64,000 nt of DNA from positions 2,417-66,416 of IMG/VR virus record IMGVR_UViG_3300032315_001390; one strand, 5' to 3'. Source of the DNA: a virus. The position numbers were made by a program, and so were the translations under genes. The notes under the pieces are model-generated. The model saw only the letters and a list, made by a program, of their open reading frames with translations. It was not told where the DNA came from and did no database searches. Shown here one piece after another: positions 13,448 through 57,510 of this stretch; within the stretch, counting starts at the first letter, position 1, and every line of letters begins with the position of its first letter.

Positions 13448-13642
13448 ATGCCAAAATCAAGAAACCGTGGAGGTGCTAAGGAGCATCGAGCAAGAGTTAA
13501 AAAAAGAAACGCTAGATTATTATCAGAAAAAAATGCGTTCCGTAAAGAATACACAAGAATGATGGAACAAAAAATTGAGGAAATGAAGGCCAAAGGACAA
13601 GTTGAACAAAGTTCAAGTGAAAATAATTCTCAACCCGAATAA
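13448..13642 (+). CDS. small basic protein
   Basis: 64-aa K/R-rich ORF with a tight ATG after the previous stop. Confidence 0.3.
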   Translation: MPKSRNRGGAKEHRARVKKRNARLLSEKNAFRKEYTRMMEQKIEEMKAKGQVEQSSSENNSQPE

Positions 13643-37300: not shown

Positions 37301-40300
37301 GTCGGTGTTATAGTATTTGTCGGGGTTGTTGTAGGTGTTTGAGTATTTGTTGGTGTTTGACTATTAGTAGGAGTCTGTGTGCGTGTTGGGGTCTGAGTAT
37401 TTGTAGGAGTTTGTGTAGTTGTCGGAGTATTTGTAGGTGTTTGTGTATTTGTTGGAGTGTTTGTTGGAGTTGGTGACTCGGTTGGAGGTGGTGTTGCACC
37501 TGGACTACGAGTTGGTGTAGGTGTTACAGTATTTGACGGAGTGGTTGTTGGTGTTACAGTATTGGTTGGAGTAGTTGTTGGGGTCTGAGAAGTTGTTGGA
37601 GTAGTTGTTGATGTTGATGTTACAGTATTTGTTGGTGTATTGGTCGGAGTTAGAGTTGAGGTACTTGTTGGTGTTTGAGAAGTTGTTGACGTGGGACTTT
37701 GAGTTGGTGTAGATGTTGGTGTGGAAGTAGTAGTCTTAGTTGGTGTTTGGGTTGCCGTAGGTGTTGGATTTGGTACACAATTTTCATAATCCAATCTTAT
37801 ACCTTTACAATTGCTACTAACACCAACAAAATTGAAAATTGAAGAACATGCACAAACACTAATACTGTATCCTAAAGGAAAATACTGAAAACCAGGTGGT
37901 GGTAAAATTTGATTTAAAACATTATTACAATCAGTATATTGAATTTCAGTACACCAATTACAACCAGTACGATCTAATATTTCCACATTCCATGTTTTAC
38001 ATGCACATCTTGTAACAGATGGTGTTGGAGTAAATGTTGGAGTACAAGTCGGAGTTTTGGTATTTGATGAGGTGTTAGTTGGTGTGATGGTATTAGTTGG
38101 TGTTTGACTCTGAGTTGCGGTTCTCGTTGGTGTAATTGTTGAGGTACTTGTCGGTGTGACACTAGGAGTTTGAGTTGGAGTTACTGTTGGGGTTGAGGTG
38201 TTTGTTGGTGTTTGGGTGTTTGTTGGAGTCGTTGTTGGAGTTTGAGTTAAACTACTCGTTGGTGTTTGGGTACTAGTTGGGGTTATGGTGCTTGTTGGAG
38301 TTGTAGTTGGTGTTTGAGTATTTGTAGGTGTTTGAGTATTTGTAGGTGTTTGTGTGTTTGTAGGGGTTTGAGTATTTGTAGGTGTTTGAGTGTTTGTTGG
38401 AGTGTTTGTTGGAGTTGGTGACTCGGTTGGAGGGGGTGTTGCTCCCAAACTACGACTTTGTGTAGGAGTTACAGTATTTGTTGGAGTAACCGAAGGAGTT
38501 ACAGTATTAGTAGGGGTATTAGTTGAAGTTACAGTATTTGTTGGAGTAATTGTTGGTGTTGGTGAACTAGTATTTGTAGGTGTATTGGTGGGTGTTTGTG
38601 TTGAGGTAGGAGTTATTGTATTTGTTGGTGAAAATGAAGGTGTTGGGGTATTAGTAACAGATTGTGTTGGTGTTACAGTTTGAGTGTTTGTTGGGGTTAT
38701 GGATGGTGTAACCGTTTGAGATGGAGTTACAGTAGATGTAACTGTAGGTGTTGGAGTATTAGTTGGGGTTTTAGTCGGTGTTGCCGAGGGACAAGGATCA
38801 CAAGAATCACATATGTTTGGGGTCACACTAGAAATCTGAGTATTGAAATCTAAATCAATAACTCTGTCTCCAATTACATAACATTGAGAATTATACTCCA
38901 AACCGTCTCCAAAAACTATATTAATACTAGATGGAATAGAAACTATGATAGAATCTCCATAAATTTCACAACAATTTTGAGCGACATACAAATTATAAAC
39001 AGTCGTTGGAGTTACCGTTGGTGTAGGTGTCAGAGTTGGAGTAGGTGTTTGAGTTTGAGTCGGTGTTAGAGACGGAAAAGGAACACAACCAGAAGAATAA
39101 AGTGTAACATTACCAGCAGGAGCGGAACAACTTTGTCTAACAAATGCTGGAACGTTACATGAACACACATAGTATACCCAACCTAGTGGGAAAAATTGTG
39201 TAAAACCAAAATCAGATGGTAAATAATCTGAAGTTATACCATTACAATTCCTATATCGTACAGATACAACACAATTTGCTTTGGTTACTTCTAAATAATA
39301 CGTGTTACAAGTACATGGTGATGTTGTCGGTGTTTGTGAAGGAGTTAATGTTGGTGATACAGTATTTGTCGGTGTTTCAGTAGAAGTTGGTGTATTTGTA
39401 GGTGTTTGTGTATTTGTAGGTGTTGGTGTTTCAGTAGAAGTTGGTGTAATTGTGGGTGTTTGTGTATTTGTAGGTGTTGGTGTTTCAGTTGGTGTAGGTG
39501 TTTGGGTAGTTGTAGGTGTTTGAGTGTTTGTTGGAGTGTTGGTTGGGGTTGGTGAATTTGTTTCTGGTGGTGTTGATCCTGGACTACGAGTTGGCGAAGG
39601 AGTTACAGTATTAGTTGGGGTAATCGAAGGAGTTACACTATTCGTTGGAGTAACTGTAGAAGTTACAGTGTTTGTTGGAGTTTTTGTTGTTGTTGATGAT
39701 ACAGTATTTGTTGGTGTATTGGTTGGTGTTTGGGTTAAGGTCGGAGTTACTGTATTTGTTGGTGAAAGTGAAGGTGTTTGGGAATTAGTTAAAGATTGTG
39801 TGGGAGTTACAGTTTTAGTGTTTGTTGGTGTTTGGGTTGGTGTTGGTGTTTGAGTTGGTGTATTGGTTGGAGTTTGAGTTTGTGTTTTAGTTTGTGTTGG
39901 TGTTCTTGTTGGAGTTCTAGTTGCTGATGGTGTCGGGTCTGGACATGGTGAACCAATACTCAACGAACATATATTAGAGATTACTGAATTAACCTGAAAA
40001 TTTACTGTTGTAAGGTCAGTAGGTTCAATAATGTAATATCTTTGACTTGAAAATAAAACACCATCAGTACCAAACTGAATTGTAATTGAACTAGGAACAC
40101 TCAAAACAATTGTACTTGTTACATTAGAACAACAATTTTCAGCTAAGTAATTAGTATATTGGATACTTGGTGTTTGCGTTGGAGTTTGAGTATTTGTTGG
40201 AGTAATGGTTGGAGTTATAGTCGGTGTGGCAGTATTTGTTTGAGTAACCGATGCGGTTAAACTAACAGTTGGTGTTACACTTGGTGTTGGTGGTGGTAGT

Positions 40301-40539
40301 TCATTAGTAAAACAATTTGTTTCTAAAAAAGTTATATTTTCAAACGGTGTATTAAAATATCCGTTTTCGTACCAAATAGTTAAAACTTCACCAGGACTTA
40401 TTTGATTTCCTGTAGATATGAAATCCTCATTACAGTATCTGTAATTAAAAGTGGCAATTACTGGACCATCATTCCGAATAATAGATTTTAAACAACTACA
40501 ACTCACACTTTTTTTATTATAATTATCTGTCAAGTTCAA
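34399..40539 (-). CDS. giant (2046 aa) Cys-rich modular protein with multiple long P/T/S/N/Q linkers (putative virion fibre, adhesin or host-recognition protein)
   Basis: Single uninterrupted ORF; at least 5 Cys-rich modules ([10 protein letters not shown]...[14 protein letters not shown]...CACS, CFQYSVV...[19 protein letters not shown]...CSCT) separated by linkers such as [27 protein letters not shown] repeated four times; no ATG at the 5' end (TTG start at 40539). Confidence 0.7.
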
Positions 40540-46188: not shown

Positions 46189-46542
46189 ATGGAAATTAGA
46201 ACAACAAAATTTGAAGAAGTTGAAAAAGAATTTGGTTCTTTGAAACCAGATTTACTTGATGAATCCGCAATTTATCAGGGTGCGTATTTTAAAGATAAGT
46301 TGGTTGGGGTAGTTTCATATGTACAACATCCTAACCATATTTATTTGGGACATGCTTTTGTGGTTGATGAACATCGAGGTAAAGGTATTTATAAGTTACT
46401 TTGGGAGTACAGAAATATGAAAGTCAAAGAATTAGGAAAACCACTCATTGCTCATTGCAACGTGTCTAGTTTGAAACACTTTTTGAATAATGGTTTCATT
46501 TTGGATAAAGGGTTGTTTTTAGTTACAAAGAATCACGAATGA
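46189..46542 (+). CDS. GNAT-family N-acetyltransferase
   Basis: FVVDEHRGKGIYKLLWEY (acetyl-CoA-binding R/QxxGxG/A motif A) in a 117-aa protein. Confidence 0.6.
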   Translation: MEIRTTKFEEVEKEFGSLKPDLLDESAIYQGAYFKDKLVGVVSYVQHPNHIYLGHAFVVDEHRGKGIYKLLWEYRNMKVKELGKPLIAHCNVSSLKHFLNNGFILDKGLFLVTKNHE

Positions 46543-47228
46543 AAGAAATAGATGCACTTTTAATATCCGACGTTCATTTAGGATCTAAAGGTTGTAATGC
46601 TGATAAACTTTTAGAAGTTCTCAAACAGTACAAACCTAAAGAATTAATTATCGTAGGTGATTTCATTGATGGGTGGTTACTCAAAAGAAGGTTTTATTGG
46701 CCACAATCCCATACAAACATTTTACGTAAAATTTTATCTTTTTCAAAAAACGGCACAAAAATCCATTACATTACCGGAAATCACGATGAATACTTACGTA
46801 ACTATGTTCCATTAATTTTAGGAAACATTGAAATTAAAGATGAAATGGTTTGGAACAATTACTATATTGCTCATGGTGATTTATACGATGGAGTAGTACA
46901 GTTGAAATGGTTAGGTCATCTTGGTAGTTGGGGTTATGAACTCGCAATTTTGGTAGACAGAACGTTAAAAAAACTTGGATATAAAAAATCCTTGAGTTTA
47001 TTTTTGAAATTGAAAGTAAAAGAAGCGGTTAAATTCATTACAAGATTTGAAAAACAACTTGAATATCAAGCCGAAAAAAGAAATTGTATAGGAGTGATTT
47101 GTGGTCACATTCATACACCATTAATAGATTTGAACAGAAAAATTCATTATATTAATTGTGGAGATTGGATCGAAAGTAATTCATACATAATTTACAATAA
47201 AAATAAATTTGTTTTAAAAAAAATTTAG
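46539..47228 (+). CDS. calcineurin-like metallophosphoesterase (LpxH/YaeI-like)
   Basis: SDVHLG, VGDFIDGW, GNHDEY, AHGDLYDG, GHIHTP motifs. Confidence 0.65.
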   Translation: MKEIDALLISDVHLGSKGCNADKLLEVLKQYKPKELIIVGDFIDGWLLKRRFYWPQSHTNILRKILSFSKNGTKIHYITGNHDEYLRNYVPLILGNIEIKDEMVWNNYYIAHGDLYDGVVQLKWLGHLGSWGYELAILVDRTLKKLGYKKSLSLFLKLKVKEAVKFITRFEKQLEYQAEKRNCIGVICGHIHTPLIDLNRKIHYINCGDWIESNSYIIYNKNKFVLKKI

Positions 47229-48741: not shown

Positions 48742-49012
48742 ATACAAACCCATAGGGATTACACCCAAAGAAAAAGCAGACCAGTTGTTAGAATCTGTTA
48801 TGTTTAGTCTAAATAAACAATTTGACCCAAACACAGGTAAAGACCAACCAATTCCGCGCAATCCATACTATAAAGAATGTGCATTAGCAATTGTAAACGA
48901 AATCTTTGAGTTTATGAAAAAAGATGATTTAGACTCCGAAACGGCTTATTGGGCTAATCATCCTATTTCTAATTTTTGGGTTGATGTTGAACGTGAAATT
49001 AAATTGAGATGA
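48734..49012 (+). CDS. hypothetical protein
   Basis: 92-aa ORF. Confidence 0.4.
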   Translation: MSKYKPIGITPKEKADQLLESVMFSLNKQFDPNTGKDQPIPRNPYYKECALAIVNEIFEFMKKDDLDSETAYWANHPISNFWVDVEREIKLR

Positions 49013-50031
49013 ACTTACTTATAACTTTAGAAAAATATTTTCAAGAAGGTTGGTTGATTAAACAAACTCATCCAACTTTACCTCTGACAATTTGGAATTA
49101 TTCCCAATCAACCCAATACGAGGGTAAGTGGGATGAGATAACCCTTATGTGTAGAGGTTTGGTAACAGATGACAATGGAAATATCGTTGCTAGACCTTTC
49201 AAGAAGTTTTTCAATTTAGAAGAGAATAAACACACACCAACCTCAGAATTCGAAGTTTATGAAAAGATGGATGGTTCTTTGGGTAATATGTTCAAATACA
49301 ATGGAGAGCTTGTTTGTGCTACCCGTGGTTCATTTACCTCAGAGCAATCTGAATGGATGTCAAATTTTGCCAAAAAATACAACTATAAAGACATCTTAGT
49401 TGATGGATTAACCTACTTGTTTGAAATAATTTATCCCGAAAATAGAATTGTAGTGGATTATGGTAACCAAGAAAGATTAGTATTGTTAGTTATTATAAAA
49501 ACCCAAACTGGTGAAGAAGTATCCTACGATGAAATTTCTCAATTTGATGGTTGGGATATTGTCAAAAAATACGATGGAATTAGGGACTACACCCAACTGA
49601 AGAGTATAATTTCTAACAACCAAGAAGGTTTCGTTGTAAGGTTTTCAAACGGAAATAGGGTAAAAATCAAAGGAGAAGAATACTTGCGTCTTCATAAGAT
49701 TATGACTGAAGTTTCAACTAAATCTGTTTGGGAGATTTTATCCAATGGAGGTAATATGGAAGAGATACTCAGAGATGTTCCTGATGAGTTTTTTGATAAA
49801 ATAAAGGAATATGAAATGGAACTTGTTTCTAAATTTGATGATATAAAAGATGAATATAATTGGATTTATAAAATCTTAGAAAGAAATGAGGAAATTTCAG
49901 AAAATAGAGCTATCTTTGCCCAATACGCTAAAAGATACAAACACCCCTCCATTTTATTTGGTCTATTGGATGGTAAAAATATAGACCCTATGATTTGGAA
50001 AATTATACAACCCGAATACAAAAAACTATGA
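49009..50031 (+). CDS. ATP-dependent RNA ligase, T4 Rnl1 (RnlA)-like
   Basis: CRGLVTDDNGNIVARPFKKFFNLEENKHT matches T4 Rnl1 [33 protein letters not shown]; nucleotidyltransferase motif I EKMDGSL (KxDGSL, as in T4 KEDGSL); later FVVRFSNGNRVKIKGEEY (motif IV/V-like). Confidence 0.7.
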   Translation: MNLLITLEKYFQEGWLIKQTHPTLPLTIWNYSQSTQYEGKWDEITLMCRGLVTDDNGNIVARPFKKFFNLEENKHTPTSEFEVYEKMDGSLGNMFKYNGELVCATRGSFTSEQSEWMSNFAKKYNYKDILVDGLTYLFEIIYPENRIVVDYGNQERLVLLVIIKTQTGEEVSYDEISQFDGWDIVKKYDGIRDYTQLKSIISNNQEGFVVRFSNGNRVKIKGEEYLRLHKIMTEVSTKSVWEILSNGGNMEEILRDVPDEFFDKIKEYEMELVSKFDDIKDEYNWIYKILERNEEISENRAIFAQYAKRYKHPSILFGLLDGKNIDPMIWKIIQPEYKKL

Positions 50032-50441
50032 AATACTCAATTTATTTAGATGATGTAAGGACACCCATTCCAGGTAATATAGACTGGATTGTTGTTAGAA
50101 GCTACGACGAGTTCGTGAGTAAAGTCACCCAAATCGGTCTTGACAACATAGACCTTATTTCCCTCGACCATGACCTGGGCGACTCAGCTATGCAGGAGTG
50201 GCACACAAATGTCTATCACAACTACACGCTGGATTACAACAACATTACAGAAAAAACAGGTATGGACTGTACAAAATGGTTGGTTGATCAGTGGCTGGAC
50301 GGAGCTCCGGTGGTGAGGGTTATGGTTCATTCTGCAAACGCTATCGGATCGGCTAATATGATGGGTTATATCAACAATTACAAACATGTGCATAGAATGC
50401 CGCAAGATTGTCAAAGGTGGGTAGTTCCACACACGGTTTGA
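50028..50441 (+). CDS. receiver (CheY-like) fold protein, translationally coupled to the Rnl1-like ligase
   Basis: ATG 50028 overlaps the ligase stop (ctATGAaa); IYLDDVRTP....ISLDHDLGD has the acidic-pocket pattern of receiver-like domains; the CPR-domain assignment is tentative. Confidence 0.4.
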   Translation: MKYSIYLDDVRTPIPGNIDWIVVRSYDEFVSKVTQIGLDNIDLISLDHDLGDSAMQEWHTNVYHNYTLDYNNITEKTGMDCTKWLVDQWLDGAPVVRVMVHSANAIGSANMMGYINNYKHVHRMPQDCQRWVVPHTV

Positions 50442-50494
50442 TTTTATGGAATTTTTGTTGTATCTTTGTCTAAAACTATTCAAAAATTAAAATT

Positions 50495-50701
50495 ATGAAA
50501 AAATTGGTGCTCTTGATATGTTTTTTCACAATCTCCTGTAATAATGATCGTCCGTGGCGAGTCATTGAGGTAAGACAGAAAAGTGAAATGTGTGAGTACG
50601 TTTTGAGTCGTAGTAACGGACTCGGTCCACAATTAAAAGAAGTAATAGACACTTGTGGAAAATATCAATGGAATCAAATAATTCAAAACAAAGACCTATG
50701 A
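50495..50701 (+). CDS. small lipoprotein
   Basis: MKKLVLLICFFTISC signal peptide with lipobox (TISC). Confidence 0.45.
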   Translation: MKKLVLLICFFTISCNNDRPWRVIEVRQKSEMCEYVLSRSNGLGPQLKEVIDTCGKYQWNQIIQNKDL

Positions 50702-51177
50702 AACAATACTTAGAGTGGCTTGAAAAACAAATTGACTTTTGTTTAGAGGATAAAACGATGCAAAGAGAACATTGGGCTTTTTGTAGGGCATACGAGAAGT
50801 TCAAAAGCCTTGAAACAACAATTGAATCAGAAGAACTCACGCCCCACATTGCCGAATCAGAAGAACTCACGCCCCACATTGAATACTACGACAACGGAAA
50901 TGTGCGTATTAAAGGACAAAATAATTCCAAAGGACAACGAGAAGGTATTTGGGAATTCTTCTACGAAAACGGAAACATCCAAAAGAGAAGCCCATACAAA
51001 GAGGGTAGGAGGGATGGAATTGAGGAGATATTCTATGAAAACGGAAACATCGAATGTAGAACCTCTTACGAAAAGGGTATTTGGAATGGAGATGAGGAGA
51101 GGTTCTATTCAAATCCCGGAAATATCCGTATTAGAACTCCATACAAATGGACCCAATTGCTTCGAGAAATTTCATGA
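50698..51177 (+). CDS. MORN/YwqK-repeat protein (paralogue 1 of 3), contains a 30-nt tandem duplication
   Basis: Repeats YYDNGNVRIKGQ..G.REG.WEFFYENGNI..R.PYK.G..DG (MORN-variant, YwqK antitoxin-like); start at 50698 overlaps the lipoprotein stop (ATGA). Confidence 0.6.
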   Translation: MKQYLEWLEKQIDFCLEDKTMQREHWAFCRAYEKFKSLETTIESEELTPHIAESEELTPHIEYYDNGNVRIKGQNNSKGQREGIWEFFYENGNIQKRSPYKEGRRDGIEEIFYENGNIECRTSYEKGIWNGDEERFYSNPGNIRIRTPYKWTQLLREIS

Positions 51178-51248
51178 ACAAGGAAACATCGTCGAAACCC
51201 GTCATTGGAAAGACGGAAAACCAATTGAAGTAACTAAACACTAAAACT

Positions 51249-51572
51249 ATGACCAACGAACTCACACTCCACATTCAATACTACGACAAAGGAAATGTAT
51301 GTATTAAAGGACAAAGAAACTCCGAAGGACAACGAGAGGGGTTTTGGGAGTATTTTTATCCAAACGGAAACATCCATTGGAGAATCCCATTCAAAGAGGG
51401 CAAGATAGATGGAATTTGGGAGTGGTTCTATCCAAACGGAAACATCCGTTGTAGAACCCCATACAAGGAGGGTGAGATGGATGGAATTGAGGAGAGGTTC
51501 TATGAAAACGGAAACATCATTAAAACCTTTCTATGGAAAGACGGAAAACTAATTGAAGAAACTAAACACTAA
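51249..51572 (+). CDS. MORN/YwqK-repeat protein (paralogue 2)
   Basis: Same repeat units; ends ...KDGKLIEETKH, like its paralogues. Confidence 0.6.
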   Translation: MTNELTLHIQYYDKGNVCIKGQRNSEGQREGFWEYFYPNGNIHWRIPFKEGKIDGIWEWFYPNGNIRCRTPYKEGEMDGIEERFYENGNIIKTFLWKDGKLIEETKH

Positions 51573-51576
51573 ACCT

Positions 51577-51900
51577 ATGAAAAACAAACTCACACCCTAC
51601 ATTGAATACTACGACGACGGAAATGTACTTGTCAAAGGACAACTGAACTCAAAAGAGCAAGAAGAAGGTCTTTGGGAGTGGTTCCGGGAGAATGGAATCA
51701 TACATTTTAGAAGCCCATACAAACGAGGTAAGATAGATGGTATTGAAGAGTGGTTCTGCCCAAAAGGAAACATCCGTATAAGAACCACGTATAAAGATGG
51801 TGTGTGGTGTGGAATCCAAACCTTTTACGATGAACAAGGAAACATCACCGAAACCCGTAATTGGAAAGATGGAGAAATAATTGAAGAAACTAAACACTAA
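51577..51900 (+). CDS. MORN/YwqK-repeat protein (paralogue 3)
   Basis: Same repeat units; ATG at 51577, 3 nt after the previous stop. Confidence 0.6.
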   Translation: MKNKLTPYIEYYDDGNVLVKGQLNSKEQEEGLWEWFRENGIIHFRSPYKRGKIDGIEEWFCPKGNIRIRTTYKDGVWCGIQTFYDEQGNITETRNWKDGEIIEETKH

Positions 51901-51917
51901 ATGTTGTAAAACAAGAT

Positions 51918-52376
51918 ATGAAAATTAAAGAACAGATACAAAAACATTTTGTCGTGGCCATGAAAGCCAAAGACGAAGTCGCAAAATCAGCGTTAAGCGG
52001 TGCAAAAGCCGCAATTACATTGGCGGAGAAACAACACGGATCGTTTGATTTATCGGACGAAGATGTCATCAAAGTTTTATCCAAAGCGATCAAACAACGT
52101 GAAGAGTCTCAAAAGATTTATGAAGATGCTGGACGGGATGAACTTGCCCGCAAAGAAGCGGATGAAGCGTGTGTATTACGAAGGTACATGCCAGCTCAGA
52201 TGAACCCACAAGAAATTCGTGATGCTCTTGTTGAAATTATGAAAGAATTCGCTGGTGTTGTGTCAAACCCAACAGCTCTCCAGGGTAAGACTATCGGAGA
52301 GTTCAACAAGCGATTCAACGGTCGCGCTGACATCGGTACAGTCAAAGAAATTTTAGCAAAATTGTCTCAAACATGA
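51918..52376 (+). CDS. yqeY: GatB/YqeY domain protein
   Basis: Collinear with YqeY: IKEQIQKHFVVAMKAKD..., LSDEDVIKVLSKAIKQREES...YEDAGRDELARKEADEACVLRRYMP...GRADIGTVKEILAKL. Confidence 0.75.
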   Translation: MKIKEQIQKHFVVAMKAKDEVAKSALSGAKAAITLAEKQHGSFDLSDEDVIKVLSKAIKQREESQKIYEDAGRDELARKEADEACVLRRYMPAQMNPQEIRDALVEIMKEFAGVVSNPTALQGKTIGEFNKRFNGRADIGTVKEILAKLSQT

Positions 52377-52484
52377 ACCACCAAGACAACAAAGATCCTA
52401 TCTGATTTTTTTTGAAAAAAAAAGTTTTCAAAATTTTGGATATTTGAATATTAGTCTTATCTTTGCTTAGTTAAAAAAACAAAT

Positions 52485-52700
52485 ATGACCTCTACAAACA
52501 TGCCCAACGGAAATTACATGAAAATTAATGACGTAACTGAGTGGGTCGAAAGACACACCATGCGTAAAGACACCAAACTATCATTACCCATTTACGAAAA
52601 TGAGTACTTTGATACTACCGATTTGAAAAGTGTGTTCCCTAAAGGAATGTTCATGGAGATGGAATGTGATGTATGTACTTTGATGGTTGGAGTTAAATAA
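52485..52700 (+). CDS. hypothetical protein
   Basis: 71-aa ORF with a GATATTTG motif upstream. Confidence 0.35.
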   Translation: MTSTNMPNGNYMKINDVTEWVERHTMRKDTKLSLPIYENEYFDTTDLKSVFPKGMFMEMECDVCTLMVGVK

Positions 52701-52714
52701 CAACACAAAAAAAC

Positions 52715-52847
52715 AGTCAGGCGACGGAAGTACAATAGCGGTATAATAAACTATGGGTAGGGCGAAAATCTGAGATAGTGTAAAGACCTGCAAAAGATGG
52801 GAAACCAAGTGAAGCTATTGTAACAGGTTCGAATCCTGTCCTGACAA
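52715..52847 (+). tRNA. oversized tRNA-like element (canonical T-arm ACAGG-TTCGAAT-CCTGT plus acceptor 3' half; about 133 nt)
   Basis: 5' AGTCAGG pairs with 3' CCTGAC (6 of 7 positions); the T-loop TTCGAAT is canonical; but the body is about 45-55 nt too long for a tRNA and no anticodon arm could be assigned by eye. Confidence 0.3.
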
Positions 52848-52863
52848 CTAAAAATTAAAGAAT

Positions 52864-53046
52864 ATGGAATGGGTTGAAATTAAAAATGGAAAACCAAAAG
52901 ATGGTAGTTGGGTACTAATTCAAAGTTCTTTGAAGAACGTACCGAAATATGAGGTTTGCTATTATGAAAATGATGAATGGTACATACCTTCGTATGATGA
53001 TGTATGTGAAGAGAAACATATTATTAAATGGTCGTACATTGAATAA
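52864..53046 (+). CDS. small hypothetical protein flanked by the two tRNA-like elements
   Basis: 60-aa ORF (MEWVEIKNGKPKDGSWVLIQ...). Confidence 0.3.
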   Translation: MEWVEIKNGKPKDGSWVLIQSSLKNVPKYEVCYYENDEWYIPSYDDVCEEKHIIKWSYIE

Positions 53047-53052
53047 TCAAAC

Positions 53053-53167
53053 AGTCAGGTGGCGGAATTGGTTAGACGCTAACAAAGTGAGAAGTCAGCT
53101 TGAATGTAGAAATACATTTATGTACCCAAAGATGATTTCATACAGGTTCGAATCCTGTCCTGACTAC
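53053..53167 (+). tRNA. oversized tRNA-like element with tRNA-Leu-like 5' half (about 115 nt; internal GAAA-tetraloop hairpin insertion)
   Basis: AGTCAGG-T-GGCGGAATTGGTTAGACGC matches the acceptor/U8/D-arm of class-II tRNA-Leu (E. coli ...TGGCGGAATTGGTAGACGC); the 3' ACAGGTTCGAATCCTGT-CCTGACT-A gives a full 7-bp acceptor; a 28-30-nt excess includes hairpin TGAATGTA-GAAA-TACATTTA (53101-53120). Confidence 0.4.
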
Positions 53168-53348
53168 TAAAAACAAAAATAATTAGATATGATTGGACTT
53201 ACTATTTTCGGATTGTTGATGTTTTGGATTATCATAACGGAAGGAAATGTTTTTCTTCGTGATAATGACGATGATTGGGACGGAACAAATCAAAGTATAG
53301 ATTTGTGATTATTTTCAAAAATAATTTTTTTTTTGAACTTGTAGTTAG

Positions 53349-53356
53349 TATATTTA
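53349..53356 (+). promoter_or_regulatory. TATATTTA promoter motif within conserved GTATATTTACACC
   Basis: An identical 13-mer GTATATTTACACC also occurs at 60223-60235; 22 nt upstream of ATG 53379. Confidence 0.4.
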
Positions 53357-53378
53357 CACCATCAAATCAAAATTAAAA

Positions 53379-53633
53379 ATGAACGAAGCAAAATACGTAA
53401 TCGTCAATGGAAGCGGAATCATCTTTTCCGCAGCAATCCAACATAAAGACATGGTTGGTTATAATGAAAAATGTGAAGGTGCTGGGTTCGTAAGTTTTAC
53501 CGTCGAAAAAGACAGCTACGGCGATGACATCATCGTTGCTAAATGCTACGGTAAGTCCATTTCATTGGACATCGAATCTCGTCCAGAAAAAGATTCAAAA
53601 ATTCTAACACGTCAAATTACCAATCCTTTCTGA
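53379..53633 (+). CDS. hypothetical protein
   Basis: 84-aa ORF. Confidence 0.4.
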   Translation: MNEAKYVIVNGSGIIFSAAIQHKDMVGYNEKCEGAGFVSFTVEKDSYGDDIIVAKCYGKSISLDIESRPEKDSKILTRQITNPF

Positions 53634-53768
53634 ATATAAAACTAAAAAACGAATGAAAAATTATTACATTGATAACAAAGAGTATTATTTATGGTGTATT
53701 GCAAATGATGTAATACCTTACCACTAAACAAAAAACAACTAAAAAAACTAAACAACTAAACAAAAGAC

Positions 53769-53987
53769 ATGAAAAAGTTAATTGCAATTTTCAGCATCGG
53801 TGTATTATTGGTAAGCTGTAATGTCTCCAGTCCTTCTCAAGATAAAGAGATGCTTCAAAAGAAATACCCAAAAGGTATTGTGTACAGTGTTACCGCAGTT
53901 CGCTACATTGTGGTGGATTCTACAAATGTGTTGGATATTACGGTAGAATTAGACGGAACCATTTTTTCTACCGTGAAAATAAAATAA
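53769..53987 (+). CDS. small lipoprotein
   Basis: MKKLIAIFSIGVLLVSC signal peptide with lipobox (LVSC). Confidence 0.5.
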   Translation: MKKLIAIFSIGVLLVSCNVSSPSQDKEMLQKKYPKGIVYSVTAVRYIVVDSTNVLDITVELDGTIFSTVKIK

Positions 53988-53996
53988 TAAAAACAA

Positions 53997-54485
53997 ATGA
54001 AACTAAATCAAAACTCACTCTCGGCAAAACTCTATCGTTGGTTCTATAAAACCGACACAATGCCCACCAACCTGTGTCCTTACTTTTGGAGACTGGTAAC
54101 TGCGGTGATTCTTTCACCTTTGCTTGCAATTTATACCCTACCCTATGAAATCATCAACTACAAACGTCAGTGTTGGGACACATACGGTGAAGTGCTCGGA
54201 GAATCGCTTGCTTATTGGTTCTTTATCGCTGCTATTATTTGCATGATTTCAACATTGAGTCTTTTCTTTTACATCCCTGATGAGGATTCATTACTTATGG
54301 TAATGATAGTTTTTGGTTTTTGTGTTTGGACTTCCCTTATCATAGTTGGTATTATTTGGAGTATTTTTAACGCAGAAGAATACTTAAAATCAAAGAAGAG
54401 CGATGATGAAAAGACAGACAACATCATCGTTGAGATGGTGAAAGCAAAGTATCACAAATACTGTCCTAAAATTGATTGGAAGTAA
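53997..54485 (+). CDS. integral membrane protein (about 3 TM)
   Basis: Hydrophobic helices LVTAVILSPLLAIYTL, YWFFIAAIICMISTLSLFFYI and VMIVFGFCVWTSLIIVGIIWSIF. Confidence 0.45.
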   Translation: MKLNQNSLSAKLYRWFYKTDTMPTNLCPYFWRLVTAVILSPLLAIYTLPYEIINYKRQCWDTYGEVLGESLAYWFFIAAIICMISTLSLFFYIPDEDSLLMVMIVFGFCVWTSLIIVGIIWSIFNAEEYLKSKKSDDEKTDNIIVEMVKAKYHKYCPKIDWK

Positions 54486-54530
54486 AAAACAATTTAATTT
54501 AACTATTATTTAACTATTAACTATAAAAAA

Positions 54531-55268
54531 ATGACAAAACAAACAGTTTTAGAAAGAATCAAAGAAGGTGCAGAGTTTATTGACAGAGAATCTCAGTTCA
54601 AAAAAGCAGTTGAAAACAAAGAAACCAAGACAACTGAATACTTTAGTGGAGTAAAAGCTTTATCTGAAGACCAATTTTGTAAGGAACTTGTCAATTGGTG
54701 GAAAAAATACTATCTTGAAGATTTTGATGATACAAATAAAATTGGTACTCAATATAGGTATCCAGAAGATGGATCGATAAAATGCGATATAGTTTTTTCT
54801 TCTAAGGGATATAAAGGAAAATATAAAAACGAGTGGGCCATTGAATTTAAAAAAACATTGATCATTGGGCATAATGGTAAAGATTATGAACAAACCCCTA
54901 AAAGAATGTTTGATTGCAAGGTAAAACATTCTAGTTTGATTAATGATTCAAAAAGATTGCATAATTCTCTAATTGCTGAAAATAAATTAATTATCGCGTA
55001 CGGATTTAAATATGATAAAGATAAATTAGCTCATATGAGAACTCTCCATCCAGATCCAAAACATAAAACTAGATTAGATGAAATTCAAGAAATATTAAAC
55101 ATCCCAGCTAATAAAGGATGTTATAATTTAGAAGAAAGTATGAATAACTTGCAATTTATTCTAAAGGGTCGTGGTTTAATAAACGAAGATTTTGAGGTTA
55201 TTGATTTTTGGGCACCTAGACATCCATGCGGAGGATATGGTGAGATGTATGTTTTCCAAATTAATTAA
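54531..55268 (+). CDS. hypothetical protein (possible PD-(D/E)xK-like core CDIVF...EFKK)
   Basis: 245-aa ORF; weak D...E.K arrangement only. Confidence 0.35.
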   Translation: MTKQTVLERIKEGAEFIDRESQFKKAVENKETKTTEYFSGVKALSEDQFCKELVNWWKKYYLEDFDDTNKIGTQYRYPEDGSIKCDIVFSSKGYKGKYKNEWAIEFKKTLIIGHNGKDYEQTPKRMFDCKVKHSSLINDSKRLHNSLIAENKLIIAYGFKYDKDKLAHMRTLHPDPKHKTRLDEIQEILNIPANKGCYNLEESMNNLQFILKGRGLINEDFEVIDFWAPRHPCGGYGEMYVFQIN

Positions 55269-55386
55269 AACCATCGATGACTACTCTCTTACAATTTTTT
55301 TCGATCATCCTGTTGTATATCTTGATTTATTTTGTATCTTTAGCCTATACAAAATACCGATTTGAAAATACAGGAAAACAAAAACC

Positions 55387-56043
55387 ATGAAACTAATTTT
55401 AGAAAAAGACCAAAGATTATTTTTTACTAGTGATACCCACTACAAACACTCAAATATTTGTCGGGCAACCACAAATTGGAAAGACTCTGATGGTGTTACT
55501 CGTGATTTCAAATCCTTGGATCACATGAACAATACACTGGTTGATAATATCAATACTAAAGTAGGTGAGGATGATGTTTTAATCCACTTAGGAGATTGGT
55601 CTTTTGGTGGATTTGAAAGTATAGAAGAGTTTCGGCAAAGAATCCTTTGTAAAAACATTCATCTTGTTTTTGGAAACCACGATCATCACATTCGTAGAAA
55701 CAAGGGAGGGGTCCAGGATCTATTTACCTCAACTCACGACTACCTTCACTTAGATGTAAGACAACCTTCCTCAACCAACAAAGGATTGACAAATAAGTTT
55801 GAGTTCATTTGTATGCACTATCCTATTGCTAGTTGGGATGGTATGAACAATGGTGTGATTCACCTTCACGGTCACACACACTTACCAGCACACCTGAGGG
55901 TTGCACAAGGTAGAGCTATGGATGTTGGTGTTGATGGTAATGAATACGAACCTCTACTTATGCAAGAGATACAAGTTATTATGTCAGGAAGGGGTATCAA
56001 AAAACTTTGTCTACCACAAGATCATCACGAAAAAAGAATTTGA
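55387..56043 (+). CDS. calcineurin-like metallophosphatase (candidate RNA 3'-phosphatase of the repair cassette)
   Basis: FTSDTHY, LGDWSFGG, FGNHDHH, MHYPIASW, HLHGHTH motifs. Confidence 0.65.
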   Translation: MKLILEKDQRLFFTSDTHYKHSNICRATTNWKDSDGVTRDFKSLDHMNNTLVDNINTKVGEDDVLIHLGDWSFGGFESIEEFRQRILCKNIHLVFGNHDHHIRRNKGGVQDLFTSTHDYLHLDVRQPSSTNKGLTNKFEFICMHYPIASWDGMNNGVIHLHGHTHLPAHLRVAQGRAMDVGVDGNEYEPLLMQEIQVIMSGRGIKKLCLPQDHHEKRI

Positions 56044-56048
56044 AAATT

Positions 56049-56435
56049 ATGAAAAATCTAATATTATTAAGGGGCTGTCCTGGTTCGGGAAAATCGACAG
56101 TTGCGGAAATGTTTCCAAAAGCGGTTCATTACGAGGCAGATATGTACTTCATGGTCAACGGTGAATACAAGTTCGATGTTACCAAACTAAAGAACGCTCA
56201 TGCTTGGTGTCAGGACATGGTTTACATGGATATGTTAAAGGATGTTCCAACAATCGTGGTTTCCAATACATTCACACAAGAATGGGAGATGGAAGCTTAT
56301 TATAAGTTGGCCAAAGATTACGGTTACACAATCTTCTCATTGATTGTTGAAAACCGACACGGCGGAAGGAATATTCATGGTGTTCCTGATGATAAGTTAG
56401 AAATTATGAAAAACAGATTTGAAATAAAATTATGA
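56049..56435 (+). CDS. P-loop kinase, polynucleotide kinase-like (AAA_33/Zeta-toxin-type fold)
   Basis: ILLRGCPGSGKST Walker A at the N-terminus of a 128-aa protein; ATG 56049 directly after the phosphatase stop (the track start 56007 is a non-ATG). Confidence 0.55.
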   Translation: MKNLILLRGCPGSGKSTVAEMFPKAVHYEADMYFMVNGEYKFDVTKLKNAHAWCQDMVYMDMLKDVPTIVVSNTFTQEWEMEAYYKLAKDYGYTIFSLIVENRHGGRNIHGVPDDKLEIMKNRFEIKL

Positions 56436-56447
56436 AAGAAAAAGAGT

Positions 56448-56455
56448 TATATTTG
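56448..56455 (+). promoter_or_regulatory. TATATTTG promoter motif upstream of the Rnl5-like ligase
   Basis: GTTATATTTGCA 24 nt before ATG 56479. Confidence 0.35.
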
Positions 56456-56478
56456 CATAATTTAAAAAACGTATTGTA

Positions 56479-57510
56479 ATGGAAAGAAAACTTGCAACAG
56501 TCAGAAGAATAAAAGAAATTTTACCCATCGAAGGAGCTGATAGGATTGAACTTGCGGTGGTTGATGGTTGGAAAGTTGTGGTGGCAAAAGATGTCCAACA
56601 CAAGGTTGGTGATTTGGTAATCTATTGTGAGATTGATTCTTTTCTTCCCATCAGAGAAGAATTTGAGTTCTTGCGTAAGTCATCCTATAAAAAGATGGGA
56701 GACCAGGAAGGGTTTCGTTTGAGAACCGCTAAAATGAAAGGACAAATTTCACAGGGATTGATTTTGCCAATTTTCGTTTTGAACCCACCCGATACAAATA
56801 TTTATGTCCAACCATTTGAGGGCTTGGATGTAACAGAGATGTTAGATATTGTGAAATACGAACCCCCCATTCCAGCAAATTTAGCTGGTAAGGTTAAGGG
56901 GTTGTTTCCTTCGTTTCTCGTCAAAACTGACGAAGAAAGGGTGCAAAACATTGCGGTCGAATATTCCGCCTTATGTTTCCAAAGTAAACATCAATTTTAT
57001 GTAACCGAAAAGTTGGATGGTTCATCGGCCACTTTTTATATTAACAATGGAGAATTCGGAGTTTGTTCACGAAATTTAGAACTATTAGAAACCGAAGATA
57101 ATAGTTTTTGGAAAGTAGCACGTGAATTAAAACTAGAGGAAAATCTAAGAGCACTCGGAAAGAATATTTGTCTACAAGGTGAGTTGATTGGTGAAGGTAT
57201 TCAAGGCAATCCCTATGGTATAAAAGGACAAACTGTTAGATTTTTTAGTGTTTATCAAATTGATAGTAGAACCAGGTTGGGAATCAAAGATTTAGAGGAT
57301 ATTTGTTTCATGATTGGTCTTCAAACTGTACCTATTCTGGAATCTAATTTTATTCTTCCAAACACAATTGAAGAGATGTTACAGTATGCGGAAGGAAAGT
57401 CCGCTCTTAACCCAAAAACAGAAAGAGAAGGTGTTGTTGTTAGGTCATTAGACGGGACAATTTCTTTTAAGGCAATCAGTAATAAATTTTTACTTAAAAA
57501 CGAACAATGA
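56479..57510 (+). CDS. ATP-dependent RNA ligase, DraRnl/Rnl5-like (N-terminal OB-like domain + nucleotidyltransferase)
   Basis: N-terminal KLATVRRIKEILPIEGADRIELAVVDGWKVVVAKD...GDLVIYCEIDSFLP is typical of the DRB0094-type ligase family; motif I EKLDGSS (KxDGxx), EGVVVR (motif IV). Confidence 0.6.
   Translation: MERKLATVRRIKEILPIEGADRIELAVVDGWKVVVAKDVQHKVGDLVIYCEIDSFLPIREEFEFLRKSSYKKMGDQEGFRLRTAKMKGQISQGLILPIFVLNPPDTNIYVQPFEGLDVTEMLDIVKYEPPIPANLAGKVKGLFPSFLVKTDEERVQNIAVEYSALCFQSKHQFYVTEKLDGSSATFYINNGEFGVCSRNLELLETEDNSFWKVARELKLEENLRALGKNICLQGELIGEGIQGNPYGIKGQTVRFFSVYQIDSRTRLGIKDLEDICFMIGLQTVPILESNFILPNTIEEMLQYAEGKSALNPKTEREGVVVRSLDGTISFKAISNKFLLKNEQ

Follow-up and report, generated by a model that had tools for sequence, protein, structure and literature searches.

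In our opinion, two separate things overlap at positions 49009-57510 of the window (the whole 64,000-nucleotide stretch of viral DNA analyzed here), namely a split end-healing-and-sealing cassette and a phage-only family of probable carriers, the tRNA-like elements (TLEs); we put the probability of this reading at roughly 0.7. Two ligases, one of the T4 Rnl1 type and one of the nick-sealing Rnl5 type, make up the cassette together with a calcineurin-type metallophosphoesterase and a Pnk-type P-loop kinase. On this reading, the TLEs are neither tRNAs nor repair substrates.

Gene content of the region

All listed components are encoded on the + strand, at the coordinates given in Table 1. Profile searches bear out the components named in the first-pass annotation (Rnl1, a receiver protein, YqeY, a phosphatase, a kinase, an Rnl5-type ligase, and two tRNA-like elements), but that list omitted the three MORN ORFs, the small ORFs, the membrane protein, and the 245-aa ORF. 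Likewise, the close packing that it described applies to the last three enzymes only and not to the rest of the region.

Table 1. Features at positions 49009-57510 of the window
Feature	Position	Strand	Evidence
T4 Rnl1-type RNA ligase, 340 aa, sealing enzyme	49009..50031	+	PF09511, phrog_562, 2c5u
cREC (cyclic-phosphate processing receiver), 137 aa, predicted 2',3'-cyclic phosphodiesterase, opening gene of the inserted block	50028..50441	+	PF20274, phrog_1479
Mosaic block, 5,359 bp, between Rnl1 and phosphoesterase	50034..55392		Bounded by direct repeat ATGAAA
Three MORN_2-repeat ORFs, the last two tandem duplicates	50653..51900	+	PF07661 E 1e-15
YqeY/GatB-tail domain protein, 152 aa	51918..52376	+	PF09424 E 2.9e-33, phrog_1460
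Small ORF, 71 aa	52485..52700	+	Stop 14 nt upstream of TLE1; L001 copy 80% identical
TLE1, tRNA-like carrier with cargo of about 90 nt	52715..52848	+	Fold, shared arms
Small ORF, 60 aa	52864..53046	+	Stop 6 nt upstream of TLE2; 98% identity to L001
TLE2, tRNA-Leu-like carrier with 63-nt cargo	53053..53167	+	Rfam tRNA 35.7 bits
Membrane protein, 162 aa	53997..54485	+	phrog_944 E 9e-22; synteny
245-aa ORF, last gene of the inserted block	54531..55268	+	ORF call; no family match
Calcineurin-type metallophosphoesterase, 218 aa, predicted to heal 3' ends	55387..56043	+	phrog_547
P-loop polynucleotide-kinase-like protein, 128 aa, predicted to phosphorylate 5'-OH ends	56049..56435	+	AAA_33, phrog_2071
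Rnl5-type (NgrRnl/DraRnl-like) RNA ligase, N-terminal OB domain, 343 aa	56479..57510	+	PF21189, PF09414, phrog_968

The MORN ORF region contains a 328-bp unit in 2.2 repeats (51174-51901), and the MORN-repeat ORFs are probably unconnected with RNA repair. Synteny places the membrane protein in a mobile segment that travels with TLEs in the related locus L001, where the 60-aa ORF is flanked by two TLEs as well. The 245-aa ORF had no matches in Pfam, PHROGs, NCBIfam, PADLOC, or PDB, and the pLDDT of its single-sequence structure model (43.5) is too low for use.

A split, predicted healing-and-sealing cassette

The Rnl1-like ligase matches PF09511 (E 1.8e-21) among the Pfam profiles and phrog_562 (E 1e-72) among the PHROGs. 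In the alignment with T4 Rnl1 (structure 2c5u, E 7e-20), it keeps motifs I, III, IV, and V, the segments that align with the T4 motifs being RPFKKFFNLEEN, KMDGSL, FEIIYPENRIV, EGFVV, and KIKG. The phosphoesterase matches phrog_547 (E 1.3e-40) and displays DxH, GD, GNHD, and GHTH motifs in its translation; it bears a weak resemblance to solved structures (Aquifex aq_1665, 1xm7, E 8e-4). The kinase matches AAA_33 (E 2.8e-9), phrog_2071 (E 4e-39), and phrog_505, a "polynucleotide kinase" family (E 2e-9); its P-loop, GCPGSGKST, is that of T4 Pnk, and its likeness to the T4 Pnk kinase outside the P-loop is weak (1ly1, E 5e-3). The second ligase combines PF21189 (PHA02142 OB domain, E 6.5e-37) with PF09414 (RNA_ligase, E 7.5e-26), matches phrog_968 (E 4e-87), and aligns with Naegleria NgrRnl (5cot, E 1e-73) over its full length, residues 3-341. 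In other phages these domains are fused into one protein: successive segments of the profile of phrog_8238, a fused kinase-phosphatase-ligase family, match the kinase, the phosphoesterase, and Rnl1 of the window. At the level of sequence similarity, these searches establish the protein identities of the cassette. Of the families that the first-pass annotation had named for an HMM check, RNA_lig_T4_1, RNA_ligase, AAA_33, YqeY, and a receiver model (cREC) were recovered, but the Metallophos matches of the phosphoesterase fell under the Pfam cut-off. Healing and sealing do reside on separate genes, as had been proposed: ligases of two families, plus a kinase and a phosphoesterase.

In T4, Pnkp and Rnl1 constitute a tRNA repair pathway that counters the PrrC anticodon nuclease. 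The phage studied here shares with T4 a ligase of the Rnl1 family in which every catalytic motif is kept, the identical P-loop of the kinase, and a predicted healing-then-sealing logic. Unlike in T4 Pnkp, the kinase is a stand-alone protein of 128 aa, and the phosphatase is a calcineurin-type metallophosphoesterase instead of a HAD-type (DxDxT) domain; the Rnl5-type ligase and cREC are additional to the T4 set. The three domain types seen here recur, with their order unchanged, in Clostridium thermocellum Pnkp and in the phrog_8238 phage fusions. However, C. thermocellum Pnkp is one protein, whereas here the functions occupy three separate genes, the ligase is of the Rnl1 type, and the Hen1 methyltransferase partner was not seen. 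The full-length NgrRnl match spans both the OB and nucleotidyltransferase domains and likens the second ligase to the Rnl5 enzymes of Naegleria gruberi and Deinococcus radiodurans, but the present enzyme is phage-encoded and lies within a healing-and-sealing cassette.

The substrates and the counter-defense role of the cassette may be proposed by analogy with T4 Pnkp/Rnl1 and C. thermocellum Pnkp. A metal-independent host ribonuclease would cut RNA, for example in a tRNA anticodon loop, leaving 2',3'-cyclic phosphate and 5'-OH ends. The phosphoesterase, and in this phage also cREC, would open and remove the 3' phosphate; the kinase would then phosphorylate the 5'-OH; finally, Rnl1 would seal breaks in loops and Rnl5 would seal nicks in duplex RNA. 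That such repair counters anticodon nucleases can reasonably be inferred from T4 biology.

It is unlikely, in our opinion, that the ligase, kinase, and phosphoesterase serve a non-defense role instead, be it processing of the phage's own RNA, replication-time nucleic-acid repair, or tail-fiber attachment. T4 Rnl1 (gp63) has tail-fiber attachment as a further activity, and phrog_562 is annotated as "RNA ligase and tail fiber protein attachment catalyst"; moreover, we know of no biological role of Rnl5-type ligases, and neither an anticodon nuclease nor any other defense context is visible in the phage sequence. Nevertheless, the conserved linkage of a ligase with a 5'-kinase and a 3'-phosphoesterase, fused in phrog_8238, points to repair of 5'-OH, 2',3'>P breaks, and this neighborhood has repeatedly taken in cREC, a predicted cyclic-phosphate enzyme.

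Probable insertion of a mosaic block and the origin of the Rnl1-cREC coupling

In six relatives (L001-L005 and L022; Rnl1 84-96% identical), the genes form a contiguous array, g48734-Rnl1-MPE-kinase-(Rnl5)-g57507-g57872, in which the stop codon of Rnl1 overlaps the start codon of the phosphoesterase (MPE). The phosphoesterase is 98% identical in relatives, where it lies directly 3' of Rnl1, and in more distant loci MPE, kinase, and Rnl1 are adjacent. As judged from this gene order, the healing and sealing genes are a conserved cassette in related phages. In junction alignments, identity with the relatives holds through ACTATGAAA, then stops, and restarts at ATGAAACTAATTTTAG (55387); copies of the direct repeat ATGAAA are located at 50028-50033 and 55387-55392. 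These alignments indicate that a 5,359-bp mosaic block entered exactly at the overlap of the Rnl1 stop and the phosphatase start, splitting the cassette. The direction of this event follows from parsimony over two relative clades; alternatively, a deletion in the relatives could account for the difference. Part of the block is found upstream of Rnl1 in L001. The block would have delivered cREC, the three MORN-repeat genes, YqeY, the small ORFs, the membrane protein, the 245-aa ORF, and the two TLEs. As one co-evolved unit, the 8.5-kb island of the first-pass annotation is not borne out: the region is composite, with enzyme genes that are contiguous in close relatives and a block inserted among them.

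The 137-aa protein matches Pfam family PF20274, cREC_REC (E 1e-20), as well as phrog_1479. Its ATG overlaps the TGA of Rnl1 (ATGA), as had been described for a receiver-fold protein. Since the block appears to have been inserted at the Rnl1/phosphatase overlap, the Rnl1-cREC coupling would be inherited from the older Rnl1-phosphatase junction; by placing cREC after Rnl1, the block thereby let cREC take over the translational coupling to Rnl1. The protein had been regarded as uncharacterized and as the most novel part of the region, which is not so: the cREC family has been named, linked to RNA ligases, and predicted to act as a 2',3'-cyclic phosphodiesterase (PMC7824862, PMC9503650; 2021-2022). 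Iyer, Burroughs, Aravind, and colleagues described a neighborhood of a T4-like tRNA ligase, cREC, a nucleotide kinase, and, in some cases, a phosphoesterase of the calcineurin-like kind (PMC7824862, PMC9503650). The present region fits this published type, except that here cREC seems to have come by insertion, taking the start-stop coupling of the phosphatase; its activity is a predicted one. Among the ORFs of the region scanned with Pfam and PHROGs, none matched a sirtuin, MazG, or Nudix family.

The expected co-occurrence of cREC with RNA ligases was reproduced. Relatives of cREC are encoded on 437 viral contigs, and 34 of the 80 cREC loci fetched from these have a same-strand ligase (Rnl1 or Rnl5) no more than 8 kb away, versus about 6/120 in the control, the TLE loci listed. 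A YqeY homologue was near cREC in none of the 80 loci, and a TLE motif was present in 13.

tRNA-like elements as a family of probable carriers

The two oversized tRNA-like elements noted earlier do exist. TLE2 exceeds the gathering cut-off of the Rfam tRNA model (29 bits) with an insertion of 55 nt. Its frame consists of a 7-bp acceptor stem, the D arm GGCGGAATTGGTTAGACGC, the T arm ACAGGTTCGAATCCTGT, and A73 C74, and the cargo stands where the anticodon and variable arms would be (fold z-score -2.75). Another 6 contigs, whose flanks are unrelated, contain this cargo with 100% identity, and the orthologous site in L001 contains a different cargo. TLE1 has an acceptor stem, a truncated D region, a T arm, and A73 C74, the T arm and acceptor strand being common to TLE2. 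Its cargo is closed by an 8-bp helix (ACAATAGC/GCTATTGT), is present in 7 viral contigs, and occurs in contig L265 without the tRNA frame. Neither element was called by ARAGORN or by the whole-window Rfam gathering run. An assignment of the TLEs as tRNAs was rejected, as they have no anticodon arm.

Scans with the 3' 23-mer of the TLE frame and, separately, with its 5' 26-mer each gave matches on 120 or more viral contigs. In the genomes of 185,579 cellular species there were just 17 matches, every one on MAG contigs, and the frame is absent from the cultured phages of INPHARED. The family is phage-only, occurring on hundreds of viral contigs and in essentially no cellular genomes. In sequence comparison, a near-invariant tRNA-Leu-like acceptor/D/T frame encloses at least 183 different inserts that replace the anticodon and variable arms; it should be noted that the frame looks near-invariant partly because both scans collected exact strings. 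Conservation ends exactly at positions -1 and 74, and compensatory changes preserve the T stem in 10 variants versus 1 mismatch, as counted in the 5'-ascertained sample. The elements are 67 to 180 nt long, with no peak at tRNA sizes, and the inserts form a continuum of lengths between 20 and 130 nt. The 183 non-redundant cargo types of the sample have no shared motif and no common closing helix (20/183, the shuffled level); compared with control DNA, they fold modestly better (mean z -1.0 vs -0.43, p 4e-6), and covariation tests of cargos drew on few divergent members. Cargos are exchanged at orthologous sites, and one exists without a frame.

TLEs are located within tRNA clusters: tRNAs are present at 62 of 124 TLE loci, and at one locus at least 8 TLEs are interleaved with 7 tRNAs. 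Among the TLE loci listed, no accompanying gene family exceeds 15/120, and any repair gene is found at only about 10 of 120; the tie between tRNA-like elements and repair genes suggested by the first-pass annotation does not hold. A single co-adapted 8.5-kb counter-defense island, with the tRNA-like RNAs acting as anticodon-nuclease decoys or dedicated enzyme substrates, is decidedly improbable. The components are co-located in the window, TLEs occur no more than 10 kb from Rnl1 in L001 and two other loci and near repair genes in five more, and the 13 cREC loci with a TLE motif point the same way. However, no TLE, cREC, or YqeY separates the enzyme genes of the close relatives, the TLE2-type element of a 135-kb relative belongs to a separate TLE cluster, repair genes are as infrequent at the listed TLE loci as stated above, and TLEs have no anticodon loop of the kind that anticodon nucleases recognize.

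It is hardly credible that TLEs are interrupted or intron-bearing tRNA genes cleaved and re-ligated by the phage enzymes: the enzyme set does fit the healing-and-sealing chemistry of fungal Trl1-type tRNA splicing, and the frame is clearly tRNA-Leu-derived, with 32 of 156 elements called as tRNAs by ARAGORN, but the anticodons called are arbitrary (some of 2 or 4 bases), the insert takes the place of the anticodon arm, so that none is left once the insert is removed, the inserts are 183 unrelated sequences of continuously varying length, one cargo stands alone with its own closing helix, and most TLE loci are without a ligase.

Within the preferred reading of two overlapping systems, the frame most likely serves as a carrier. 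It would stabilize small functional RNAs and provide them with processing of the tRNA type (RNase P, 3' trimming, CCA addition); the carried RNAs would be co-expressed with phage tRNA clusters, and the conserved halves of the frame would permit recombination-driven exchange of cargo. T4 species 1 RNA (rnaC), a small stable RNA of 139 nt in the T4 tRNA cluster, is TLE-like in its canonical T arm, acceptor-like closing helix, large non-tRNA insert, and tRNA-cluster site, although sequence similarity between it and TLEs was not seen. T4 has one such RNA (rnaD is without a T arm), whereas TLEs number in the hundreds and have a shared tRNA-Leu-like D arm and interchangeable cargos. The "tRNA scaffold" that Ponchon and Dardel engineered for recombinant RNA expression retains the acceptor stem, T arm, and D arm and has an arbitrary RNA at the site of the anticodon stem-loop; its frame confers correct processing and nuclease protection (PMC3753655). 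TLEs similarly keep an acceptor/D/T frame around a cargo RNA; unlike the synthetic scaffold, they are natural and phage-encoded, the variable arm is replaced too, and their tRNA-like processing is putative.

The repair gene set is of an ordinary type, split by an insertion of 5.4 kb. No earlier description of the TLE family was found in the open-access literature, and the family is apparently undescribed so far; the TLEs are the unexpected part of this region.

Two oversized tRNA-like elements

In our opinion, the two oversized tRNA-like elements found among the RNA-repair genes (TLE1 and TLE2; coordinates in the table) are of more consequence than the repair cassette itself. The two are identical in the T arm and the 3′ acceptor strand. 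Two hallmarks of a canonical tRNA, the 7-bp acceptor stem and the GTTCGAATC loop of the T arm, are present in TLE2 and, save for an A1-A72 mismatch, in TLE1. Canonical tRNAs are 72–92 nt long and carry an anticodon arm of a 5-bp stem and a 7-nt loop, which neither TLE has. In a permissive scan, the only Rfam family matched was tRNA, on 53053–53166 (35.7 bits), with the acceptor stem, D arm and T arm aligned and 55 nt skipped at the site of the anticodon arm. The whole-window Rfam run at gathering thresholds gave no hit, although this score exceeds the tRNA cut-off of 29. ARAGORN called no tRNA or tmRNA gene in the window and thus missed both elements.

Features of the studied region and of other parts of the window
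Feature	Coordinates	Strand	Size	Basis
SbcC-like protein	13602-16010	+		phrog_77 E 5.5e-41
Thr/Pro-rich ORF	34399-40539	-	2,046 aa	
Second phosphoesterase, LpxH/PdeM-like	46539-47228	+		calcineurin type; under NCBIfam cut-offs
Rnl1-type ligase	49009-50031		340 aa	PF09511 E 1.8e-21; phrog_562 E 1e-72; T4 Rnl1 2c5u E 7e-20
cREC protein	50028-50441		137 aa	PF20274 E 1e-20
Block, probably inserted	50034-55392		5,359 bp	junction alignments
MORN_2 tandem duplication	51174-51901	+		328-bp unit, 2.2 times
YqeY	51918-52376			PF09424 E 3e-33
Small ORF before TLE1	52485-52700	+	71 aa	
TLE1	52715-52848	+	134 nt	
Small ORF before TLE2	52864-53046	+	60 aa	
TLE2	53053-53167	+	115 nt	Rfam tRNA
Membrane protein				phrog_944
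ORF at block end	54531-55268	+	245 aa	
Metallophosphoesterase, calcineurin type	55387-56043			phrog_547 E 1e-40
P-loop kinase	56049-56435		128 aa	AAA_33 E 2.8e-9; P-loop identical to T4 Pnk
Rnl5-family ligase	56479-57510			5cot (Naegleria) E 1e-73, residues 3-341

A canonical tRNA identity is ruled out by the missing anticodon arm, the lengths of 115 and 134 nt and the negative ARAGORN result. A tmRNA combines a tRNA-like domain with a tag-peptide reading frame and pseudoknots in about 350 nt; this identity was rejected on the size of the elements and on the negative ARAGORN and Rfam results for tmRNA. The TLEs start 6–14 nt past the stops of two small ORFs, of which the 60-aa one also sits between two TLEs in L001, the contig most closely related to the window. 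The elements might have a further role in marking or protecting the 3′ ends of mRNA. Within the window, no antisense complementarity to the TLE1 or TLE2 inserts longer than 12 nt was found.

A phage-borne family with a constant frame

At least 120 viral contigs contain a 23-mer common to both elements, ACAGGTTCGAATCCTGTCCTGAC, with up to seven copies per 5 kb. An independent search with the 5′ half, AGTCAGGTGGCGGAATTGGTAGACGC, likewise returned at least 120 contigs, most of them not those of the 23-mer. Among 185,579 cellular species genomes, the 23-mer was present in 17 contigs only and absent from isolate genomes. All 17 come from metagenome-assembled genomes whose taxonomy is inconsistent, Bacteroidota making up about half, and probably represent phage DNA caught in the bins. 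This distribution rules out a copy of a host tRNA or attachment site. Among cultured phages, the frame is absent from INPHARED, where blastn with TLE2 hit nothing but the T arms of real tRNAs.

The near-invariant frame comprises the acceptor stem AGTCAGG/CCTGACT, the D arm, the T arm and A73-C74; the D arm is of the type found in these phages' own tRNA-Leu genes. Between the D and T arms lies a hypervariable insert, and total length ranges over 67–180 nt without peaking at tRNA sizes. Conservation spans positions -1 to 74; outside these, the flanks are uninformative. In the sample ascertained by the 5′ half, in which the search left the T stem unconstrained, ten variants preserve its pairing by double changes and one disrupts it. 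More divergent members have alternative acceptor stems that are fully compensated, in a sample selected for pairing. A DNA repeat or mobile element can be rejected, since the stems covary and sequence conservation extends exactly to the limits of the tRNA; on these alignments, the TLEs fit a processed, structured RNA.

The elements are placed on the coding strand and are mostly intergenic. Ordinary tRNAs occur in 62 of 124 TLE loci, some of which hold 19–25. At least 8 TLEs are interspersed among 7 ordinary tRNAs in the 5 kb of one contig (L032; 4,957 nt), and two others (L351 and L353) each hold 7 TLE 3′ motifs inside 6–7 kb. In a further cluster of tRNAs and TLEs (L039, 4124–4186), a match to the freshwater-1 RNA motif (RF02979) comes near threshold, at 70.1 bits vs a cut-off of 72. 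It should be noted that tRNA finders both overlook and mislabel TLEs: ARAGORN calls about 20% of the family tRNAs, with arbitrary anticodons, and Infernal scores are 31–45 bits compared with 55–70 bits for nearby real tRNAs. No dedicated partner gene emerged, the best family being present in 15 of 120 TLE loci and GIY-YIG endonucleases in 11.

Exchangeable inserts

The sampled TLEs contain 183 non-redundant insert types ("cargos"). As a group, these are better folded than the DNA lying 300 nt downstream (mean z -1.0 vs -0.43, p 4e-6). Neither a common motif nor a systematic closing helix was found among the 183 types, and no cargo in 12 TLE-rich loci matched an Rfam family. A compensatory change was observed in an insert stem between contigs L033 and L061; TLE1-type cargos, with few divergent members, provide 1 compensatory pair.

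Three observations, taken together, suggest from sequence comparison that inserts are modules open to exchange and that the tRNA part carries them. First, six other contigs, with unrelated flanks and different D loops, carry the 63-nt TLE2 cargo at 100% identity. Second, at the orthologous site in L001 (about 5226–5340), the upstream small ORF and the frame are the same and the flanks identical, yet the cargo is completely different, a replacement of the cassette type. Third, contig L265 (1607–1782) holds a TLE1-type cargo that no tRNA frame surrounds and that a helix of its own, about 15 bp long, closes; this suggests that the cargo is an autonomous RNA module.

Comparison with known tRNA-like RNAs

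The nearest natural analogue that we could verify is T4 species 1 RNA (rnaC), a 139-nt RNA of the T4 tRNA cluster with a canonical T arm and an acceptor-like helix closing a large insert. TLEs share the T arm and the enclosing acceptor-like helix, and many TLE loci lie in tRNA clusters, although the window itself has no tRNAs. No sequence homology between TLEs and rnaC was established, and we know of no function for the T4 RNA. Murine gammaherpesvirus 68, with its tRNA-linked microRNA precursors, and tmRNA, with its tRNA-like domain, offer looser parallels. Functionally, the closest analogue is the engineered "tRNA scaffold", in which the acceptor, T and D arms are kept, the anticodon stem-loop is replaced by arbitrary RNA, and the product is processed and protected by the cell (PMC3753655). 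A search of open-access papers and preprints found no prior description of the TLE family.

The RNA-repair cassette

Every RNA-repair component that the first-pass annotation had claimed in 49009–57510 was located, and profile searches recovered both the ligase and the kinase domains (PF09511; PF21189 with PF09414; AAA_33). The first ligase scores 77.5 bits against PF09511 (cut-off 28.3) and has nucleotidyltransferase motifs I (KxDG), III, IV and V, together with the upstream RPxxKFFN element. KMDGSL, FEIIYPENRIV, EGFVV, KIKG and RPFKKFFNLEEN all align with their counterparts in T4 Rnl1 (2c5u). That alignment stops at residue 271 of 340, and the phrog_562 profile spans residues 11–339; in the Rnl1 family, the all-helical C-terminal domain is the source of tRNA specificity. 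The second ligase has the layout of the Rnl5 (NgrRnl/DraRnl) family, i.e., an N-terminal OB domain (PF21189, residues 5–98) followed by a nucleotidyltransferase domain (PF09414, residues 172–332; KLDGS in the translation), without a C-terminal domain.

The metallophosphatase proposed earlier is borne out by its phrog_547 match and by its metal-binding motifs (DTHYKH, GDWSFG, GNHDHH and HGHTH, which represent the calcineurin motifs DxH, GD, GNH[DE], H and GHxH), but its Pfam hits, at 19–20 bits, fall under the cut-offs. The kinase stands alone and matches the kinase domain only (1ly1). This differs from T4 Pnkp, in which an N-terminal P-loop 5′-kinase is fused to a HAD-type (DxDxT) 3′-phosphatase, a bifunctional layout that the window lacks. 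Phosphatase, kinase and second ligase are closely packed, as had been described. Upstream of Rnl1, at a distance of 1.8 kb, the window encodes a second calcineurin-type phosphoesterase. Of 80 cREC loci, 8 have a homologue of this protein within 8 kb of cREC, and it may be a further accessory of this end-processing neighborhood.

Window genes were mapped onto 22 viral contigs encoding Rnl1 homologues. The conserved unit consists of kinase, metallophosphoesterase and Rnl1, frequently with the Rnl5 ligase. In the six closest contigs (Rnl1 84–96% identical), the order g48734, Rnl1, phosphoesterase, kinase, (Rnl5 ligase), g57507, g57872 is uninterrupted. At more distant loci phosphoesterase, kinase and Rnl1 are still neighbors, and at some of these cREC, phosphoesterase, Rnl5 ligase and Rnl1 are consecutive. 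The window kinase, phosphoesterase and Rnl1 correspond to segments 1–106, 192–250 and 426–680, respectively, of the 737-aa profile phrog_8238, a fusion with the layout of Clostridium thermocellum Pnkp. The kinase, calcineurin-type phosphoesterase and ligase modules of the C. thermocellum-type enzyme are adjacent genes in the relatives of the window, and the fusion is absent from the window.

Judged by sequence, the repair enzymes are new members of known families in a neighborhood of a type already published. By analogy with characterized relatives, the 3′ end would be healed by cREC and/or the phosphoesterase and the 5′ end by the kinase; Rnl1 would seal loops, and the Rnl5 ligase duplex nicks. 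A counter-defence purpose of the cassette is plausible. In concept, there is little new in this split Pnkp-like set with Rnl5 and cREC, which comparative genomics had foreseen.

The cREC protein

The 137-aa receiver-like protein, whose ATG is overlapped by the Rnl1 TGA, matches nearly the whole of PF20274, the "cyclic-phosphate processing receiver domain" (74.6 bits, cut-off 27; profile 2–88 of 88). The first-pass annotation regarded it as the most novel component of the island. This does not stand: the protein is cREC, named in 2021 as a predicted opener of 2′,3′-cyclic phosphates, with operonic linkage to RNA ligases already reported (PMC7824862). A 2022 survey described the neighborhood "T4-like tRNA ligase, cREC, nucleotide kinase", with an occasional calcineurin-like phosphoesterase, and considered cREC still experimentally uncharacterized (PMC9503650); we found no experimental work on it in open-access papers and preprints.

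Relatives of cREC were found in 437 viral contigs, of which the best 80 (72–84% identical) were studied. A same-strand Rnl1- or Rnl5-type ligase lies within 8 kb in 34 of these best 80 loci (median gap 2.2 kb), and at least one of ligase, phosphoesterase and kinase in 45 of them, in varied orders. In TLE loci, a control from a similar phage population, a ligase was present in only about 6 of 120. The association of cREC with RNA ligases, which had been proposed as a check, therefore holds. As a family trait, cREC is expected beside genes for RNA ligases or RNA-end processing and never beside histidine kinases; the locus counts bear on the first of these expectations. A single-sequence AlphaFold model of cREC (pLDDT 46.1) was too low in confidence to use. 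Cyclic phosphodiesterase activity of cREC remains a prediction, and its strong conservation among the best 80 relatives makes these proteins good candidates for a first biochemical test.

A probably inserted block

The stop codon of Rnl1 and the start codon of the phosphoesterase overlap in the relatives (...ACT ATGAAA CTAATTTTAG...). Identity of the window with the relatives holds to ATGAAA (50028–50033), breaks, and returns at ATGAAACTAATTTTAG at 55387. Thus, a 5,359-bp block with a 6-bp direct repeat at its bounds parts Rnl1 from the phosphoesterase. The alternative, a deletion in the relatives, would account for the same difference; however, two clades of relatives lack the block, and parsimony therefore favors insertion in the window. 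The expanded repair module described by the first-pass annotation is, accordingly, a genuine healing-and-sealing cassette of known kind, but its 8.5-kb extent stems from the insertion. Since the block sits at the Rnl1-phosphoesterase junction, the "ATGA coupling" of Rnl1 with cREC would be inherited from that older junction: cREC joined at the Rnl1 stop codon and acquired translational coupling ready-made. Such a precise insertion shows a route by which repair modules acquire accessories.

By the same comparisons, the block itself is mosaic. Its distal part (small ORFs, both tRNA-like elements and the membrane protein) lies upstream of Rnl1 in L001, where cREC, the MORN genes and YqeY are missing from the block. 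In a 135-kb relative, a TLE2-type element belongs to a separate cluster of four TLEs, and repair genes are present in only about 10 of 120 TLE loci. The placement of TLEs between the ligases therefore reflects mosaic insertion; it is no evidence of a functional tie, and the earlier view of the tRNA-like RNAs as a functional part of the island is not sustained.

Genes unmentioned by the first-pass annotation include several small ORFs, the membrane protein, the 245-aa ORF and three MORN-repeat ORFs, two of which are tandem duplicates. The two near-identical MORN_2-repeat genes result from tandem duplication of the 328-bp unit, and this stretch has the highest GC of the neighborhood (0.389). The 245-aa ORF had no match in Pfam, PHROGs, NCBIfam, PADLOC or the PDB, and its single-sequence AlphaFold model (pLDDT 43.5) was too low to use; it contains a D...EFK string, a candidate PD-(D/E)XK-like nuclease motif. 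Scans for promoters and terminators were uninformative, with more sites in shuffled than in the real sequence.

The window as a whole, from an uncultured phage, is low in GC (about 0.29–0.39), is coding nearly all on the + strand and has few PHROG matches; no cultured phage in INPHARED matched the 8.5-kb region by megablast. The SbcC-like protein is among the few annotatable genes elsewhere. The 2,046-aa ORF, probably a fiber or adhesin, has long Thr/Pro-rich (TPTNTQ)n linker arrays, and it is these that make the GC skew at 36–40 kb so extreme (+0.4 to +0.56).

Discussion

The TLE family is apparently large, phage-specific and undescribed, with cassette-like exchange of its cargos. The most far-reaching interpretation, to which we tentatively assign a probability of about 0.4, is that TLEs are an undescribed, widespread class of phage RNA, a natural "tRNA scaffold" with shuffled cargos. 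The constant carrier, derived from tRNA-Leu, would be tRNA-like in processing and stability and would display hundreds of cargo RNAs. Recombination inside the conserved carrier halves would shuffle the cargos among phages, and the cargos would serve as small regulators, decoys or aptamers against host factors. T4 species 1 RNA would be a lone relative of this design, and the family could suggest a role for it.

TLEs reveal a large set of conserved cargo RNAs in phage tRNA clusters. If they are expressed, phages would have in them a modular route to many different stable small RNAs from a single tRNA-derived frame, and a natural equivalent of a tool devised deliberately by RNA biochemists.
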